Part shown: positions 9,706 to 17,925 of the stretch, in pieces
Layout of the letters: each line of letters opens with the position of its first letter
Position numbering within the stretch: the stretch's first letter is position 1
DNA from: an uncultured delta proteobacterium
GTDB taxonomy: Bacteria; Myxococcota_A; UBA9160; SZUA-336
Direction: 5' to 3'
Length of the DNA stretch: 64,000 bases
Assembly: GCA_963704165.1 (NCBI GenBank)
Contig: CAVPHD010000001.1
Span: forward strand, 352,001 to 416,000
Program-made: the position numbers and the translations under genes
The notes under the pieces: generated by a model
Told to the model about the DNA's origin: nothing
Database searches by the model: none
What the model saw: only the letters and a program-made list of their open reading frames with translations

Positions 9706-11337
9706 GTGATTCCGCCGGGTCTCCATCCACGAGAGCAACCCCGCCCGACGTCGTCGGTGGCGGAGCGTCGCGTGTACGACGCGCTCCGCGGCGGGCTTCC
9801 GGCCGGCTGGTACGCGTGGCACTCGCTTCGCGTGCGCGATCCCGGTGGCTTCGACGGGGAAGGTGACTTCGTCCTCGCGGTCCCCGGGCGCGGGCTGCTC
9901 GTGCTCGAGGTGAAGGGCGGGCAGGTGTCGGTCCGCGACGGGCGTTGGCTGCAGAACGGTCAGGCGATGAAGCAGCCGCCGCGCGATCAGGGGATCTCAT
10001 TCGCGAAGAAGCTGATCGCGCGCCTCCGGGCACGAGACTGCGCGCCGCATGCGTGGGGCGTCGCGGTCTGCTTTCCCGACGTCGGAACCGAGCGCGGTCC
10101 GACGCAGGGCGACCTGAATGGCGTCGTGCTCGGCGCGCAGGACCTCGGCTGGATCGGTGAGGCGCTCCCGGCGCTGGTCGAGCGCGCGTTGCCCGCGCCG
10201 CGGGCCGAGCGCGGGCGCTGGATCGAGGCGCTGCACGAGTTCTGGGGCGAGACGTGGGTGCCCAAGCTCTCACTGGCGATGCGCGCGCGCCGCGCGGAGA
10301 GCGACCGCATCGCCCTCGACCAGACCCAGCTCGAGGCGCTCGACGCGCTCGCCGACAACGACCGTGTGCTCGTCGAGGGCGGTGCGGGCACGGGCAAGAC
10401 GCTTCTCGCGATGGAGTGCGCGCGGCGCGCCGCCGCGTCGGGACAGCGCGTGCTGCTCACCTGCTTCACGGCAGCGCTGGCGGAGCACCTTCGCACCCGC
10501 CTCGACGGCACGGGCGTGGACGTACACACGGTGCGGAAGATCGCGAAGGACCTGATCGAGCAGGCCGGGCGACCCACCGGCGACCTCACGCAGCCGGACA
10601 CCTGGGAACAGAATTCCTGGCGGGCGAGCGAGCTGGTGACGGATTCCACCCGCTACGACGTCGTCGTCGTGGACGAGGCGCAGGATCTCGAGCTCGCCGA
10701 CTTCGCGCTGATCGAGAAGCTCGCGCTGGGCGGCCGCCTTTGGCTCTTCCGCGACGCGCGCCAGAGCTTCTGGCCCGAGCGCGACGTGCCGTCGGACCTC
10801 GTGACCACGCGCTACCGGCTGACGCGCGCCTATCGCATGCCCGCGGCGCTCGCCCGGGTCGCCGACTCGTGCCTTCTCGGCGTGGCCGACGGCGACGCGC
10901 TCGGCGCGGCGACCGCGAACTCCGAGCTCGTCGTCACGGCGTGCGCGAGCGAGGGCGCCGCGAACGCCCGGCTCGAGGTCGTGCTCGACGGCCTGCGCGG
11001 TCAGGGACTCGCGCCCGGCGAGATCGCCGTCGTCTCGCTTCGCGGCCAGTCATCGTCCGATTCCGTCGTCCACGCGGCCTCCGCCGGCCGCCACCGCCTC
11101 GCCCGCGCCGACGCGCCCGACGCCGGCGACTTCGTCGTCGCCGACACATTCCTGCGTTTCAAGGGCCTCGAACGCCCCGCGATCGTCATCGTGGACCTCG
11201 ATCAGGTCCTCGAGAAGAGCGACCTCGGCGTGCGGCTGCACATCGCGCTCACCCGCACCCTCGTCACCGCGCAGATCCTCGCATCGCGCCAGGCCCTGCA
11301 GCGCGTCGCGGCGTTGGGGGGTGTGGCGGAAGCGTGA
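9706..11337 (+). CDS. NERD nuclease fused to superfamily 1 helicase
   Basis: NERD motif GEGDFVLAVPGRGLLVLEVKGG, Walker A GGAGTGKT, Walker B VVVDEAQD, UvrD-like C-terminal FKGLERP...ALTR. Confidence 0.88.
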   Translation: MIPPGLHPREQPRPTSSVAERRVYDALRGGLPAGWYAWHSLRVRDPGGFDGEGDFVLAVPGRGLLVLEVKGGQVSVRDGRWLQNGQAMKQPPRDQGISFAKKLIARLRARDCAPHAWGVAVCFPDVGTERGPTQGDLNGVVLGAQDLGWIGEALPALVERALPAPRAERGRWIEALHEFWGETWVPKLSLAMRARRAESDRIALDQTQLEALDALADNDRVLVEGGAGTGKTLLAMECARRAAASGQRVLLTCFTAALAEHLRTRLDGTGVDVHTVRKIAKDLIEQAGRPTGDLTQPDTWEQNSWRASELVTDSTRYDVVVVDEAQDLELADFALIEKLALGGRLWLFRDARQSFWPERDVPSDLVTTRYRLTRAYRMPAALARVADSCLLGVADGDALGAATANSELVVTACASEGAANARLEVVLDGLRGQGLAPGEIAVVSLRGQSSSDSVVHAASAGRHRLARADAPDAGDFVVADTFLRFKGLERPAIVIVDLDQVLEKSDLGVRLHIALTRTLVTAQILASRQALQRVAALGGVAEA

Positions 11338-11388: not shown

Positions 11389-12360
11389 ATGGTGCTCCGG
11401 GCGGAGGTCGATCCCTACCTGCGTCAGTGTCGCGACGATTTCGCGGCGGTGACGGCGCGGCGGTATGGGCGGCCGTTCGACCTGGCCGCGATCGAGCGGC
11501 GGGTCAGCGAGCTTCGCACCGGGGCGCGCGGGCTTCGCTACGAGGATCTGCGCTTCTTCCAGGACGAGGAGCACTGGTGGTTCCGGAATTTCTGGGTCTT
11601 CCCGCCCGAGGAACACCTGGCCGCCGAGCTCGCGGAGCGGACCTTCGATTTCTGGAATCTTCCGAAGCGCGAAGAGGCGACGATTCAGGATCTGTACGAA
11701 GTGTTCCGCTCGATCGAGCACGCGTCGATCGTGCTGCGCTTCGTCCGGCCCGACCACTACGGAATCCTGAGTCCGCCGGTCGCGCGAATGCTCGAGATCC
11801 GGCGCGGCGGATCGGCGGTTCGGACGTATCTGCACTACCTGCACGACCTGCGCGAGATCCGCGACCGCGGCGGCTACGGCCTCGACACCGCCGCCGACGT
11901 CGACATGGCGCTCTGGGTGCTTCACGAGCGCTGCTTCGGCACGTTTCGCGATCCCGAGATCGAGCGGTGCTTTCTCGCCGACCCCTTCATGGCCCAGCTT
12001 CGCGCGCGGAACCTGGTGGCGCCGCTCGCGGACCTGACGCTGCCGCAGCTCGCGCAGGCGCTGGCGCCGACGGTGCCCGCGCTCGCCGCGCTGATCGCCT
12101 GCCATCGGCTCGAGATCCAGATCCGCACCGCGGCCGAGAAGCTCGGCCTGCCGATCGCGTTCGCGAACGTCGAGCTGCACAACGTGATCGACGAGCTGAA
12201 GCCGCACTGGGCCGTCGCCGTCGAGCGGGGCCACCTGTGGCGATCCTTCGTCGAGCTCCGCAACGACCTCTTCCACAAGGACGTCCTGCGGGACTCGAAC
12301 CGGATCGATCACCTCGTCGCCGAAGTCGTGCAGCTCGAGCGGGATCTGGATGAGCTCTGA
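11389..12360 (+). CDS. Hypothetical protein: putative helical DNA-glycosylase-like domain plus C-terminal HEPN domain
   Basis: Clean 323-aa ORF. N-half ASIVLRFVRPDHYGILS...YLHDLREI...DVDMALW. C-terminal helical region ALIACHRLE...LRNDLFH, with an RxxxxH motif at 12259-12276. Confidence 0.6.
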   Translation: MVLRAEVDPYLRQCRDDFAAVTARRYGRPFDLAAIERRVSELRTGARGLRYEDLRFFQDEEHWWFRNFWVFPPEEHLAAELAERTFDFWNLPKREEATIQDLYEVFRSIEHASIVLRFVRPDHYGILSPPVARMLEIRRGGSAVRTYLHYLHDLREIRDRGGYGLDTAADVDMALWVLHERCFGTFRDPEIERCFLADPFMAQLRARNLVAPLADLTLPQLAQALAPTVPALAALIACHRLEIQIRTAAEKLGLPIAFANVELHNVIDELKPHWAVAVERGHLWRSFVELRNDLFHKDVLRDSNRIDHLVAEVVQLERDLDEL

Positions 12361-12369
12361 GTCACCCGC

Positions 12370-13455
12370 ATGAGCGCGATCTCGGGCGACATCGTCTCGT
12401 TCGGCGAGAAGATCCTCTCCATTCTCTCCGACGGACAGTTCACGACGACGTACAAGTATGCAGTTCTCCTCGGACTCCTCGATCTGGCGCTCGAAGAAAC
12501 CGAACGAGACGGCGCGCCACCGACCAGTGTCACCACGCGCCAGCTCGCCGAGCGGGTGATCGAGCTGTACTGGCCCCACACGCTGCCGTTCCCGAACTAC
12601 GCCGGAGGCGTGCTGAAGCAGAACAGCTCCGCCGGGGGCGTTGCAACGATCCCTCGCCTGGTCGAGGCGTTCCGCACGGCCGATGCGAGCCGAACGACCG
12701 TGTTCCGAGCGCGCTCGAAGTCGCCGCGAGACTGGATGAAGCTCGTGCGCAAAGTGGAGTGGACGCTCGTCGAGTGGCCGCTTCCTCGAGTCCAAGTGGT
12801 GGGGCGGGAGCATCTGCCCTTTCTGTACTCGATCCACTGGGACACGAGCGTGAAGAAGAGCGAGTTCGACAGCCCCGAGTTCGACAACTCGATCCGATTC
12901 GTTTCGGGGTCGGCCGAGAATCTCGTACGACTCGCGGGCCTGCTCCGACCGCTTCTCCACCGTGAGTGGGCCGCCATGATCTCGCGCTGCAATTCCCTCT
13001 TCGATACCCAGCTCGAGGACTTCCTGTTCCGTCGCGATCGAGCTGCGCTCGGCGTTCTGCGGGCGCCGCTCGTCGATCTGCAGAGCGGACTGTGTTTCTA
13101 CTGCGAGCGCCGACTGAAGGACGAAGGAATCGAGGTCGATCACTTCGTCCCCTGGGCGCGGCACCCGAACGACGCGATCGAGAACCTGGTCGCCGCGCAT
13201 TCGAGCTGTAACGGATCGAAGAGCGACCACCTGGCGGCGAGCGCCCACGTCGAGCGCTGGGTCGCGCGCGGAAACGATTCGGGCCGCGCGCTCGCGCAAA
13301 TCTCGACCGACGTCGTCTGGCCGTCGGATCCTCACGCCTCGATCGGGGCCGCGAGAGGAATCTACCTGCGCCTGCCCGACGACGCTCGGCTCTGGCGGCA
13401 GAGCAAGGAGTTCGAGGTCGCGGAGCGGGGTCGACTCGTGACGGCGTTCGGGTGA
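12370..13455 (+). CDS. HNH endonuclease with N-terminal helical recognition domain
   Basis: CFYC...EVDHFVPW...NLVAAHSSCNGSK. N-terminal TTTYKYAVLLGLLD...IELYW. Confidence 0.9.
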   Translation: MSAISGDIVSFGEKILSILSDGQFTTTYKYAVLLGLLDLALEETERDGAPPTSVTTRQLAERVIELYWPHTLPFPNYAGGVLKQNSSAGGVATIPRLVEAFRTADASRTTVFRARSKSPRDWMKLVRKVEWTLVEWPLPRVQVVGREHLPFLYSIHWDTSVKKSEFDSPEFDNSIRFVSGSAENLVRLAGLLRPLLHREWAAMISRCNSLFDTQLEDFLFRRDRAALGVLRAPLVDLQSGLCFYCERRLKDEGIEVDHFVPWARHPNDAIENLVAAHSSCNGSKSDHLAASAHVERWVARGNDSGRALAQISTDVVWPSDPHASIGAARGIYLRLPDDARLWRQSKEFEVAERGRLVTAFG

Positions 13456-13643: not shown

Positions 13644-14807
13644 ATGAAAAGGGGCCTGACGGGTCGGTACGAGACCTCGATTGCGGGCAGCGAAACCGTG
13701 AGCGCGTTCGTTCCGGCGCCCCTTCCGCCCGCGCCCGGGGTCGAGTTCGGGGGTGCTCTACAGAGCGCGCTCGAGCCGGCCCTGCTCTCGCTCGGCCGAT
13801 TGGACGGCGCGGCGAAGCTGCTCCCCGACATTGGCCTTCTCCTCTACGCGTACGTTCGCAAAGAGGCGGTCCTCTCGTCGCAGATCGAGGGAACCCAGTC
13901 GTCGCTCTCCGACCTCCTGCTCTTCGAGCTCGACGAAGCGCCGGGCGTGCCGCTCGACGACGTGGTCGAGGTCTCGAACTACGTCGCCGCGCTCAACCAC
14001 GGTCTGGCGCGGTTACGCGATGGGTTCCCGCTCTCGAATCGCCTGATCCGCGAGATCCACTCCGTGCTGCTGTCTCGCGGCCGCGGAAGCGGAAAGACGC
14101 CGGGTGAATTCCGCCTGTCCCAGAACTGGCTCGGCGGAACGCGGCCCGGGAATGCGGTCTTCGTTCCCCCGCCCGCGCATCGGGTTCCCGACGCGATGTC
14201 CGAGCTCGAGAGATTCCTGAACGACGACGCGCCGGGTCTTCCCGTCCTGGTGCGAGCCGGCCTGGCCCACGTGCAGTTCGAGACGATCCACCCGTTTCTC
14301 GACGGGAACGGCCGCGTCGGGCGGCTCTTGATCACGCTGCTCTTGTGCCAGTCGGGAATCCTCCAGCAACCGCTGCTCTACCTGAGTCTCTTCCTCAAGG
14401 AGCACCGCAGCCGCTACTACGAACTGCTGAACGCGGTGAGGCGCGAGGGCGACTTCGAATCGTGGCTCGTCTTCTTCCTCGACGGTGTACGCCAAACCGC
14501 AGACAGCGCCGTCTCGACCGCCCAGAGACTGAAGGCGCTCTTCGACACCGATCGCGAGCGCATCAAGACACACGGCCGAAGAGCCGACTCCGCACTCCGT
14601 GTTCACGACGCGCTCACCGCGCGGCCGCTCGCGTCGATTCCCGAGCTGACCTCGCGAACCGGCCTCTCGTTTCCCGCAGCCTCGGCCAGCGTCGATCTGC
14701 TCGGCACGCTCGGCATCGTCCGCGAGCTGACCGGAAAGCGCCGCAACCGGATCTTCGTGTACGACGAGTACCTGGCGATACTCAGCGAGGGCGGCGAGCC
14801 GCTCTGA
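13644..14807 (+). CDS. Class II Fic family protein with C-terminal HTH
   Basis: Canonical Fic motif HPFLDGNGRVGR, N-terminal inhibitory motif SSQIEG, C-terminal wHTH-like ELTGKRRNRIFVY. Confidence 0.95.
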   Translation: MKRGLTGRYETSIAGSETVSAFVPAPLPPAPGVEFGGALQSALEPALLSLGRLDGAAKLLPDIGLLLYAYVRKEAVLSSQIEGTQSSLSDLLLFELDEAPGVPLDDVVEVSNYVAALNHGLARLRDGFPLSNRLIREIHSVLLSRGRGSGKTPGEFRLSQNWLGGTRPGNAVFVPPPAHRVPDAMSELERFLNDDAPGLPVLVRAGLAHVQFETIHPFLDGNGRVGRLLITLLLCQSGILQQPLLYLSLFLKEHRSRYYELLNAVRREGDFESWLVFFLDGVRQTADSAVSTAQRLKALFDTDRERIKTHGRRADSALRVHDALTARPLASIPELTSRTGLSFPAASASVDLLGTLGIVRELTGKRRNRIFVYDEYLAILSEGGEPL

Positions 14808-14821
14808 CATAGAATGGCGCG

Positions 14822-17800
14822 ATGTCGAAGCTGGGTCGCGGCCTCTACGAGGTGCTGGTCACGGCGGCACTCGAGGCGCAGCTGGGTGAACTCGGCGAGC
14901 ACCTCGAACCCGAGCAGGAAGCGCTGCGCGCGGCGGAATCTGCCGATCGCATCGCGCTACACCTCGGCCGGATCATCCGGCGCGCGCTCGAGTCAGTGGA
15001 CGACCGGGCGCGGGTCGCGATGAGTATCTCGCTCGCTCGGAAGTTGATCGCGGAGATCGGCAACGCGATCGAGAAGTTCGATGGCGCCGGAGACGCACCG
15101 GTCGAACCGGGGACGTTGCTTCGCGCGGTCCTGTCCCGTCTGCCCGACGGCTCCGCCGAGACGATTCCATCCCCGCTCATTCCGCTGCTCGACACGACGC
15201 TTCTCACCAACGCACCGGGCGAGCCGCGAGTCGGAAGCCAGATCCGGGCGGAGATCGATTCGGCGGACCGGATCGACGTCGTCATGGCGTTCATTCGGCG
15301 CAGCGGAATCGCACCGCTGCTCGATGCGCTGCGAAAGCGGGCGGAGCGTGGAACTCCCCTGCGGGTGCTCACGACGACCTACACGGGCTCGACCGAGGCC
15401 CGCGCGCTCGACGCGCTTCGTGAGATCGGCGCCGAGGTTCGCGTCTCCTACGACACGACCGGCACACGACTTCACGCGAAGGCGTGGCTCTTCCACCGTC
15501 GATCCGGGTTCTCGACCGCGTACATCGGATCATCGAACCTGACGCACTCCGCCCAGGTCAGCGGTCTCGAGTGGAACGTCCGCGTGTCGGGAGCGCGAAA
15601 CCCGGATGTCATCGACAAGGTCGCGGCGGTCTTCGAGAGCTACTGGAACCACGGCGATTTCGTTCCGTACGAACGCGACCAGTTCCTGGAGCAGACGAAT
15701 GCGGAAGCCAGGTCCGGACCGACCCACCGTCTGAGTCCGATCGAGCTGCGCCCGGAACCGTTTCAGGAGCGACTGCTCGAGCAGATCGCGCTATCACGTC
15801 AGCGCGGGCATCACCGAAATCTGCTCGTCTCGGCTACGGGCACCGGCAAGACCGTGATGGCCGCAGTCGACTACGCGCGACTTCGCGCGGTCCTGCCGCG
15901 CACGCGACTGCTCTTCGTCGCGCATCGCGAGGAGATCCTCACACAGAGCCTCGCAACGTTTCGTCATGCGCTCCGCGACGCGGCGTTCGGCGAACTCTGG
16001 GTCGGCGGCCAACGGCCGAAGCGACTTCGAGCACGTATTCGCGTCGATCCAGAGCTTGAACGCTTCCGGACTCGGATCACCTGGAGCCGAATCACTTCGA
16101 CGTGGTGATCGTGGACGAGTTCCACCACGCGGCCGCGAGCGTCATACCGGGCATTGCTCGATCGCGTTGTGCCGGTCGAGCTACTCGGACTGACGGCGAC
16201 CCCGGAGCGAAGCGATGGGCTTCCGCTGCTCCAGTTGGTTCGACAATCGAATTGCCGCCGAGCTTCGGCTCTGGGATGCGATCGACCAGCACCACCTGTC
16301 GCCGTTCGTCTACTACGGAATCCACGACGGCCTCGACCTGCGCGAGATTCCCTGGCGGCGTGGCCGCGGATACGACGTCGACGGCCTCACGAACCTGTTC
16401 ACCGCGAACGACGTGTGGGCGAGACGGGTGATCGCGAGGCTCGCCGAGCACGTGGACGACATCGGACAGATGCGCGCGCTCGGCTTCTGCGTCAGCGTCG
16501 AGCACGCACGATTCATGGCGCAGGTCTTTAGCAAGGCGGGAATCGAAGCGACGGCGATCTGGGCGGACACCCCCGACGAGGAGCGACGCAGCGGCACTCG
16601 ACCGACCTGGCGAGCTCGGCGCGTGAACGTCGTCTTCTCGGTCGATCTCTTCAACGAGGGCATCGACGTGCCGGTCGTCGACACGCTGCTGCTGCTGCGG
16701 CCGACCGACAGCCCGACGCTCTTCCTGCAGCAGCTCGGCCGCGGCCTGCGAAGGACTCACGGAAAGATCCGTCTGCACGGTGCTCGATTTCGTGGGCCAC
16801 CACCGCAAGGAGTTCCGATTCGATCGGCGCTTCGGCGCACTGCTTGGCGGAAGTCGAAAGGAGATGGCCGAGCAGATCGCATCGGGCTTTCCGTTCCTGC
16901 CCGCTGGCTGCCACATGGAGCTCGATCCGGTCGCCGCGGAGATCGTCCTTCGGAGCATCAAGAACGCCGTACCATCCCAATGGACCGCCAAGGTCGAAGA
17001 GCTGCGAAGGATCTCCGACAGCGGAAGGGATGTGAATCTCGCGGGCTACCTCGAGGAAGCAGACCTCGATCTCGAAGACGTCTACACCGGCACACACAGC
17101 TGGTCCGACCTTCGCGCCGACGCGGGACTCCCGGTTCGCGAATCGGGACCGTCCGAAGAACCGCTTCGCCGGGCGATCGGACGCCTGCTCCACGTCGACG
17201 ATGGGCCGAGGATTTCCGCGTATCAGAGGTTGATCGCCCCCGACATCCCTCCGAATCTCGCAACGCTCTCGGAGCGTGACCGGCGCCTGCTTCGGATGCT
17301 TCTGGCATCGGTGCTCGGCAAGACAGCGACCTCTGCAACCAGACTCGAGGAAGGCTCCACGCTGCTCTGGAAGCACCCGCAGGTGCGCGCCGAGCTGCGC
17401 GACCTACTCGACGTGTTGGCGACTCGCGTCGAGCACGTCGTCCAGCCGCTCTCCACTCACTCCGAAGTTCCTCTGCAGGTCCACGCCCGCTACACGCGGC
17501 TCGAGATTCTCGCGGCATTCGGAATCGGGGACGGCGCTTCGATCCCACCGTGGCAGTCGGGCGCGTACTGGGCCGAGGACGCTCGCGCCGACCTGTTCGC
17601 ATTCACCCTCGACAAGACGAGTGGTCAATTCTCACCGACGACGCGCTATCGCGACTACGCCGTCAGTCGCGAACTGATCCACTGGGAGAGCCAGTCGACG
17701 ACGCGCGCCACGAGCCCCACCGGCCTGCGATATCAGACGCACGCAGCCGGTGGATCGAGCGTGATGCTCTTCGCTCGCCTTCGGACGAACGATCGCGCCT

Positions 17801-17925
17801 TCTGGTTCCTCGGACCGGCGACCTACGTCCGTCACGAAGGCGAGCTGCCGATGGCCGTCGTCTGGCGGCTCGAACATCCGCTGCCAGGCGATCTGTACGC
17901 GGAGTTCGCGGCGGCTGTCGCGTAG
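14822..17925 (+). CDS. PLD nuclease-SF2 helicase-DUF3427 protein (SauUSI-like type IV restriction architecture), several frameshifts 16020-16780
   Basis: PLD motif HAKAWLF...GSSNLT. Helicase motifs ATGTGKT, DEFHH, TATP, NEGIDVP and QQLGRGLR fall in successive frames. C-terminal YRDYAVSRELIHWESQS...FLGPATY is DUF3427-like. Confidence 0.85.

Follow-up and report, generated by a model that had tools for sequence, protein, structure and literature searches.

A gene for a 323-aa protein was found between a NERD helicase gene and an HNH nuclease gene in the 64,000-nucleotide stretch of DNA analysed here (the window), and it raised the question of what its product is and whether that product could act against phages. 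The window protein (P0001) produced no match in Pfam, PADLOC or NCBIfam. An earlier first-pass annotation of this DNA had taken it for a candidate anti-phage sensor-effector, with a glycosylase-like N-half and a HEPN C-terminus, in an architecture that it could not name.

The gene and its locus

The open reading frame was intact, with a GC3 of 0.89, similar to that of its neighbours, and the AlphaFold2 model of the full protein had a mean pLDDT of 93.5 and a pTM of 0.88. ORF and domain calls bore out its placement between the NERD helicase and HNH genes, and the N-half motifs quoted in the first-pass annotation were present, as was RNDLFH at 12259-12276 (R291 and H296); E242 is encoded at 12112 and Ser128 at 11770. 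The gene starts 51 bp past the NERD-helicase gene and ends 9 bp before the HNH gene, and no promoter-like site was found for it. The features of the locus are given in Table 1.

Table 1. Features of the gene, its product and its locus (positions in the window; locus handles for the clade).
Feature	Position or loci	Strand	Remarks
Whole gene	11389..12360	+	323 aa: predicted inactive OGG2-like HhH domain, helical linker and HEPN
OGG2-like HhH-glycosylase fold (aa 5-183), predicted catalytically dead sensor	11401..11937	+	VIA, Foldseek
Degenerate HhH and catalytic slots (aa 106-130)	11704..11778	+	E110 at or beside the Lys slot, S128 in the Asp slot, no GxG hairpin
D172-x3-W176 guanine-pocket pair, retained	11902..11916	+	MjOgg D194/W198; Dag1 D184/W188 by motif spacing
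HEPN domain, DUF4145-like (aa 217-323)	12037..12357	+	E242, R291-x4-H296; VIA versus 2hsb
NERD and UvrD-type helicase gene	9706..11337	+	Upstream, in the variable slot of the family gene; partnership not conserved
HNH nuclease gene	12370..13455	+	Downstream; context, not an obligate partner
Rest of small defence island	13644..17925	+	SoFic-like Fic and frameshifted PLD-helicase-DUF3427 type IV restriction gene
Loci of the clade with decayed HEPN	L027, L029-L032, L112, L116, L125, L127, L128, L130		

At the same site in the congener G007, an AAA ATPase gene pair occupied the slot of the NERD gene and the family gene, the HNH gene was retained, and the Fic and PLD-helicase genes were missing. 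Across 160 family loci, homologues of the NERD gene were found in none and of the full-length HNH in two. With these counts and the different slot genes beside the HNH gene of G007, a fixed system of NERD, family gene and HNH was ruled out. No nucleotidyltransferase antitoxin, the criterion for a HEPN-MNT pair, was found in the 64-kb window, and among the neighbour scans of the family loci a nucleotidyltransferase adjoined the family gene at L045 only.

Two other genes of the island had features of their own. The PLD-helicase-DUF3427 gene (14822-17925, +) was broken by frameshifts across at least three frames, as a pseudogene or through assembly errors, and the genome G003 carried a colinear stretch 78% identical to this region. 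The HNH protein had an unannotated N-terminal domain of about 230 aa, and a similar N-terminal motif (TYKYA/TYKLA...YW) was seen in methyltransferase-HNH fusions at L003:8944 and L018:4041.

The two predicted domains

Comparison of aa 217-323 with the HEPN protein 2hsb in VIA gave a Z of 12.2 and an rmsd of 2.1 over 103 aligned residues. The 20 best structures were mostly HEPN, with Csm6, HepT-type toxins and AbiA ranked below 2hsb. Among 106 close members, 75 matched the DUF4145 profile at E ≤1; in a set of 105 diverse members, 25 did so at E ≤0.05. E242, R291 and H296 did not vary in any of the 106 aligned close homologues, so that the motifs are not chance occurrences, and were kept at 90, 92 and 90%, respectively, in the diverse set. 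Of 110 diverse full-length members (a set without proteins shorter than 295 aa and without 15 that are fragments or have alternative fusions), 98 had the R-x4-H motif and 12 lacked it; it was present in 96 of 98 locus proteins once a clade with decayed HEPN was set aside. These results agreed with the first-pass annotation, which had read the helical C-terminus with its early Glu and RxxxxH as HEPN and had proposed conservation of R291 and H296 as a check. The C-terminal domain is modelled as a HEPN fold with the conserved early Glu and R-x4-H, and is predicted to be an RNase.

The N-domain folded alone with a pLDDT of 93.6. Its best match in VIA, over aa 5-181, was the OGG2 enzyme Tm1821 (3n0u; rmsd 5.1, 158 aligned residues) with a Z of 7.4, which is below the VIA caution level of 8; ranks 1-13 were HhH glycosylases throughout and the first unrelated fold had a Z of 4.3. 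The top Foldseek rows were MjOgg (3knt), Tm1821 (3n0u) and SsOgg (3fhg) at E 0.014-0.31, and no match at E ≤0.001 was found in the PDB and viral libraries. The match is thus a distant one, which we count as supported because two methods agree. The OGG/HhH glycosylase-like fold proposed for the N-half therefore stood, while the boundaries proposed for it (aa 60-190) did not; the fold spans aa ~5-183. PDB sequence searches with A1, A2, A3 and A4 gave nothing significant.

Residues were mapped by profile alignment to 13 OGG2 genes rather than by superposition (71 columns, E 0.039), with a score of 18.9 that narrowly exceeded all 60 block-shuffled controls (best shuffle 18.3); MjOgg residue numbers were counted from the PDB alignment. 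The catalytic MjOgg K129 fell on E110 or a two-residue gap and D147 on S128. S132-L135-R136 fell on S113-L116-R117, Y172 on Y147, D194 on D172 and W198 on W176. The 3knt chain has Q at 129 and is the K129Q mutant, which confirms the identity of the catalytic Lys. The 132 diverse N-domains compared had neither Lys at 108-112 nor Asp at 127-129, and the GxG hairpin was missing from every one, while all 13 OGG2 controls retained the catalytic Lys, Asp and GxG; the Ser that had been noticed in place of the catalytic Asp is thus part of a loss seen in all 132. D/E172 was kept in 127 and W176 in 123 of the same 132 domains, E110 in 95 and D/E170 in 102, with G, S, Q or A at position 110 in many of the others. 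A free C-terminal Lys is impossible, as the chain runs on for 140 aa through the linker and HEPN. In the accessible part of the OGG2 structural work (PMC3397491), Trp198 makes a stacking contact with the base, Asp194 is the counterpart of the N1-contacting Gln315 of OGG1, and the carboxylate of the C-terminal Lys discriminates 8-oxoG from G. We infer that the N-domain is enzymatically dead and has a pocket of guanine type that is not tuned to 8-oxoG, and its binding to the DNA backbone is possibly weakened.

The family, its neighbours and its variants

A word-indexed search scored 7996 candidates, of which 149 were homologues at E ≤0.001; the best 120 of these had 40-57% identity and were mostly full length. 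A profile run against 1.84 billion representatives (clusters at 50% identity) retrieved 581 clusters at E ≤0.001, with 216 of them reaching 1e-30, and the best 150 of the 581 were examined. The named hosts include Acidobacteriota, Nitrospirota, Methylomirabilota, Binatota, Gammaproteobacteria and Aminicenantes MAGs. Full-length matches were found in two of 151 relatives (with two more partial) and in two of 401 genomes of the host phylum, and 24 of 251 genomes of the class of G274 had one at E <1e-70. The copy of the congener G010 was identical to that in a record named Myxococcota. In a quick IQ-TREE tree of 112 locus proteins the window copy and the G010 copy, both from one genus, stood far apart on long branches. 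No relatives were found in IMG/VR (pattern scan), plasmids or phages. Overall, the family is unnamed, rare, patchy and horizontally scattered.

The PADLOC search that had been proposed as a novelty check gave no match for the window protein; over 105 diverse members it gave scattered weak matches only, most of them to HEPN models (lowest E 3.7e-4), and in ESM Atlas the matches were to unnamed clusters only. Long N-terminal fusions in L011 and L012 were discarded, being open frames that overlapped opposite-strand genes.

Restriction, toxin-antitoxin or related genes were counted in 42 of 169 neighbours within two positions of the family gene versus 9 of 106 at a distance of 4.5 kb or more (Fisher p 7e-4; 47 loci picked to limit redundancy, kin not being independent), and a strict nuclease and R-M set in 29 of 169 versus 4 of 106. 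The neighbours were called with our own gene caller at E cut-offs of 1e-4 or 1e-5 and were scored by hand after the tables had been seen. Mrr, GmrSD, HsdM/R, HNH and GIY-YIG genes adjoined the family gene in several loci. The enrichment near defence genes that the first-pass annotation had proposed as a check was found, although 22 of the 47 loci had no scored defence neighbour, and the linkage is a moderate one. Homologues were not mostly in housekeeping neighbourhoods; one clade stood among housekeeping genes.

This clade had 11 members (support 100; Table 1) and kept S128, D172 and W176 in 11 of 11 and R-x4-H in 1 of 10, and most of its loci lay between RNase II/oxidase and nitroreductase/ApbC genes. 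The N-domain can thus persist without the RNase motif. The decay of HEPN would be either detoxification after domestication or the mark of an RNase-independent role, and the clade offers a natural control for a toxin-free function of the sensor.

HEPN was also replaced by other domains. In P0189 and P0241 a RelE/ParE domain (PF05016) was found where HEPN would stand; 24 of the 36 matches to P0241 were near full length, 16 had a precomputed PF05016 and several were named RelE by JGI. A FastTree built from 123 N-domain sequences placed the nine RelE forms together with seven HEPN forms in a 16-tip clade with support of 0.98. The RelE/ParE forms would act as RNases rather than gyrase poisons. In P0222, P0235, P0239, P0242 and P0262, a coiled coil followed by a conserved C-terminal domain of about 110 aa and unclassified fold replaced HEPN, and this domain had no Pfam, PDB-sequence or ESM Atlas match. 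Separately, a gene at L046:1625-2746 (-), 5 kb from a family member, had a YaaA-like domain and a C-terminal RelE-like domain, of which only YaaA was scored, the RelE-like motif being spotted by eye; it is a candidate for a parallel fusion of DNA-lesion binder and toxin.

DUF6884/YaaA genes were located within two genes of the family gene at L018, L020, L026, L044, L049, L071 and L168, in at least four separate places of the tree, the baseline in the host phylum being about 0.25 matches per genome (51 in 201). At L049 genes for Mrr, HhH-GPD, a YaaA-like protein and the family protein ran on a single strand, and at L018 the run was AGOG-like, DUF6884 and family gene. DUF6884 is YaaA-related and, in the accessible part of PMC11701544, tied to DNA lesions and oxidative stress. 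Three fusions of GIY-YIG_2 and DUF6884 converged on the family gene (L020:9012-10310, L026:8987-10324 and L071:7012-7656 (-)) and possibly represent a lesion- or modification-directed nuclease. In Nitrospirota loci, unannotated genes of about 200-225 aa stood immediately upstream (L023:7376-7996, L034:7217-7894, L097:5375-5983, L099:5369-5983 and L001:5818-6456); they formed at least two sequence clusters without Pfam or NCBIfam match and are possible partners of the family gene.

Known systems, proposed mechanism and competing readings

To our knowledge, type IV restriction, Brig, Dag and END, the defences described so far against phages with hypermodified DNA, act by direct destruction of that DNA. 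A dead glycosylase as sensor is already known from the END nucleases. In these, according to the accessible part of PMC12191111, an inactive EndoIII/Ogg sensor is fused to PLD, NucS-like PD-(D/E)xK or McrB GTPase; END(Mag) has an archaeal-Ogg-like dead sensor and blocks modified-G phages, and END(PaCF1) has a C-terminal sensor and is non-abortive. The family resembles them in its single gene, its dead HhH-glycosylase domain as proposed modified-base sensor and its modular effector swapping, a likeness of inactive Ogg-type fold and not of direct sequence comparison with END sensors. Here the sensor lies at the N-terminus, unlike in END(PaCF1), and the fused effector is HEPN or of the RelE/ParE family (or an unassigned domain in variants), not a DNase or McrB as in END. 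The words HEPN and RNase do not occur in the END main text.

Dag1 is an active, Lys-dependent HhH glycosylase/lyase that destroys DNA and requires K118, D184 and W188 (bioRxiv 10.1101/2025.10.29.685425, accessible part). With Dag1 and Dag2 the family shares an HhH fold near OGG/AGOG and the Asp-x3-Trp pair, which in Dag1 is essential against 7-deazaguanine phages; unlike them it is without the catalytic Lys and bears a toxin domain. The OGG2 enzymes (MjOgg, Tm1821, SsOgg) are its best structural match, with S-x2-L-R, Tyr and D-x3-W in register, but the family lacks their catalytic Lys and Asp, GxG and free C-terminal Lys, superposes at the rmsd given above and is an accessory, not a core, gene.

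Csm6 joins a sensor and an R-x4-H HEPN in one chain and is activated by a ligand. Other HEPN systems are likewise gated by nucleic-acid or nucleotide ligands in the accessible reports: ApeA is a tRNase switched on by deoxydinucleotides, ApeA and DARNA (DARNA/PD-T7-3) are triggered by deoxydinucleotides or SSB-ssDNA, and DS-11 is a gated CBS-HEPN protein. The family has the same arrangement of sensor domain and R-x4-H HEPN in one chain, but a glycosylase-derived sensor is reported for none of these four in the parts accessible. DUF4145-type HEPN domains, which the family C-domain matches, are described as fused to many N-terminal domains near R-M genes in a survey (PMC3710099, accessible part) whose main text does not contain the words glycosylase or HhH; glycosylase fusions are not mentioned in the accessible part of a BREX survey (PMC12839542). 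No description of a HEPN and dead glycosylase fusion was found among the papers that our literature searches listed, although subscription papers and the END and HEPN supplements may list it, and so far the architecture, which the first-pass annotation did not recognise either, does not match a named system. The RNase output looks new. Judged by its domains and residues, the family is not an END nuclease by its effector, nor an active OGG2, nor Dag, and by analogy it is likely an RNase-output, abortive counterpart of END.

The reading we favour, with moderate confidence, is a one-gene sensor-effector in which the dead glycosylase pocket would bind a modified phage guanine and switch on the HEPN RNase, so that the infected cell is halted. 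The D-x3-W pocket would first bind a guanine derivative, a 7-deazaguanine-type base being favoured over 8-oxoG because the free C-terminal Lys with which OGG2 reads 8-oxoG cannot exist in the fusion. The base might be flipped from phage DNA or arrive already released, as a base, a nucleotide or a short oligonucleotide, an option raised because the phosphate-binding GxG hairpin is lost. Ligand binding would then bring two HEPN domains into register to form a composite active site, and cleavage of host tRNA or other RNA would lead to abortive infection or dormancy.

If so, an abortive arm would be added to the defences against modified DNA, and the anti-restriction chemistry of phages would become a suicide trigger. 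Panels of 7-deazaguanine phages already exist on which the single 323-aa gene and its clear point mutants can be tested directly, and an RNase gated by a ligand could serve as a reporter of DNA base modifications. A more tentative version, which we consider improbable, is that an excised modified guanine base or nucleotide is the danger signal and fires an interchangeable RNase (HEPN or RelE) without a second messenger. Dag-like, Mrr, GIY-YIG and DUF6884/YaaA proteins would first degrade the modified phage DNA, in keeping with the loss of the DNA-binding hairpin and with the operon-like gene runs at L049 and L018; immunity would then have a new class of signal, the excised hypermodified base.

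The recurring DUF6884/YaaA neighbours suit DNA-damage biology equally well. A dead OGG pocket might sense oxidised guanine of the host, abasic sites or excised lesions in DNA or the nucleotide pool and throttle translation as a phage-independent dormancy toxin. The nearest folds are 8-oxoG glycosylases, DUF6884/YaaA is linked to lesions and oxidative stress (PMC11701544), and housekeeping sites are numerous, including Fe-S assembly and redox genes. However, the gene is rare, horizontally scattered and enriched near restriction genes, the 8-oxoG-reading Lys cannot exist, and DUF6884 had no match in the host genome (G000, 84% complete), which leaves this reading unlikely.

Somewhat less likely again is an anti-phage HEPN RNase that senses a different cue, such as DNA breakdown products (compare ApeA), a nucleotide second messenger or a phage protein. 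The missing DNA-binding hairpin and the ligands of ApeA and DARNA would suit it, but the guanine-contacting Asp/Trp pair is what remains of the pocket, and the fold relatives END and Dag are modification-specific in the accessible reports. An active non-canonical glycosylase that excises modified bases like Dag1, for example through E110 or D170, and whose HEPN domain would serve as a back-up or for dimerisation, is very improbable: both residues are frequent in the family and the clade with decayed HEPN retains the pocket, but position 110 is often G, S, Q or A, the canonical slots have no Lys or Asp, and Dag1 itself requires Lys. A non-toxic regulator or scaffold, a nucleic-acid-binding factor with HEPN for dimerisation alone, is the least credible, since outside that clade the E/R/H residues are strongly kept at about 25-50% identity and another toxin domain can replace HEPN, even though the His is lost in the housekeeping-embedded clade and the motif is absent from a minority of diverse members.

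Finally, the AGOG-like gene at L018:469-1119 and the HhH-GPD gene at L049:6576-7334 were divergent and stood beside YaaA-like genes in defence contexts, and both are candidate Dag-type glycosylases.
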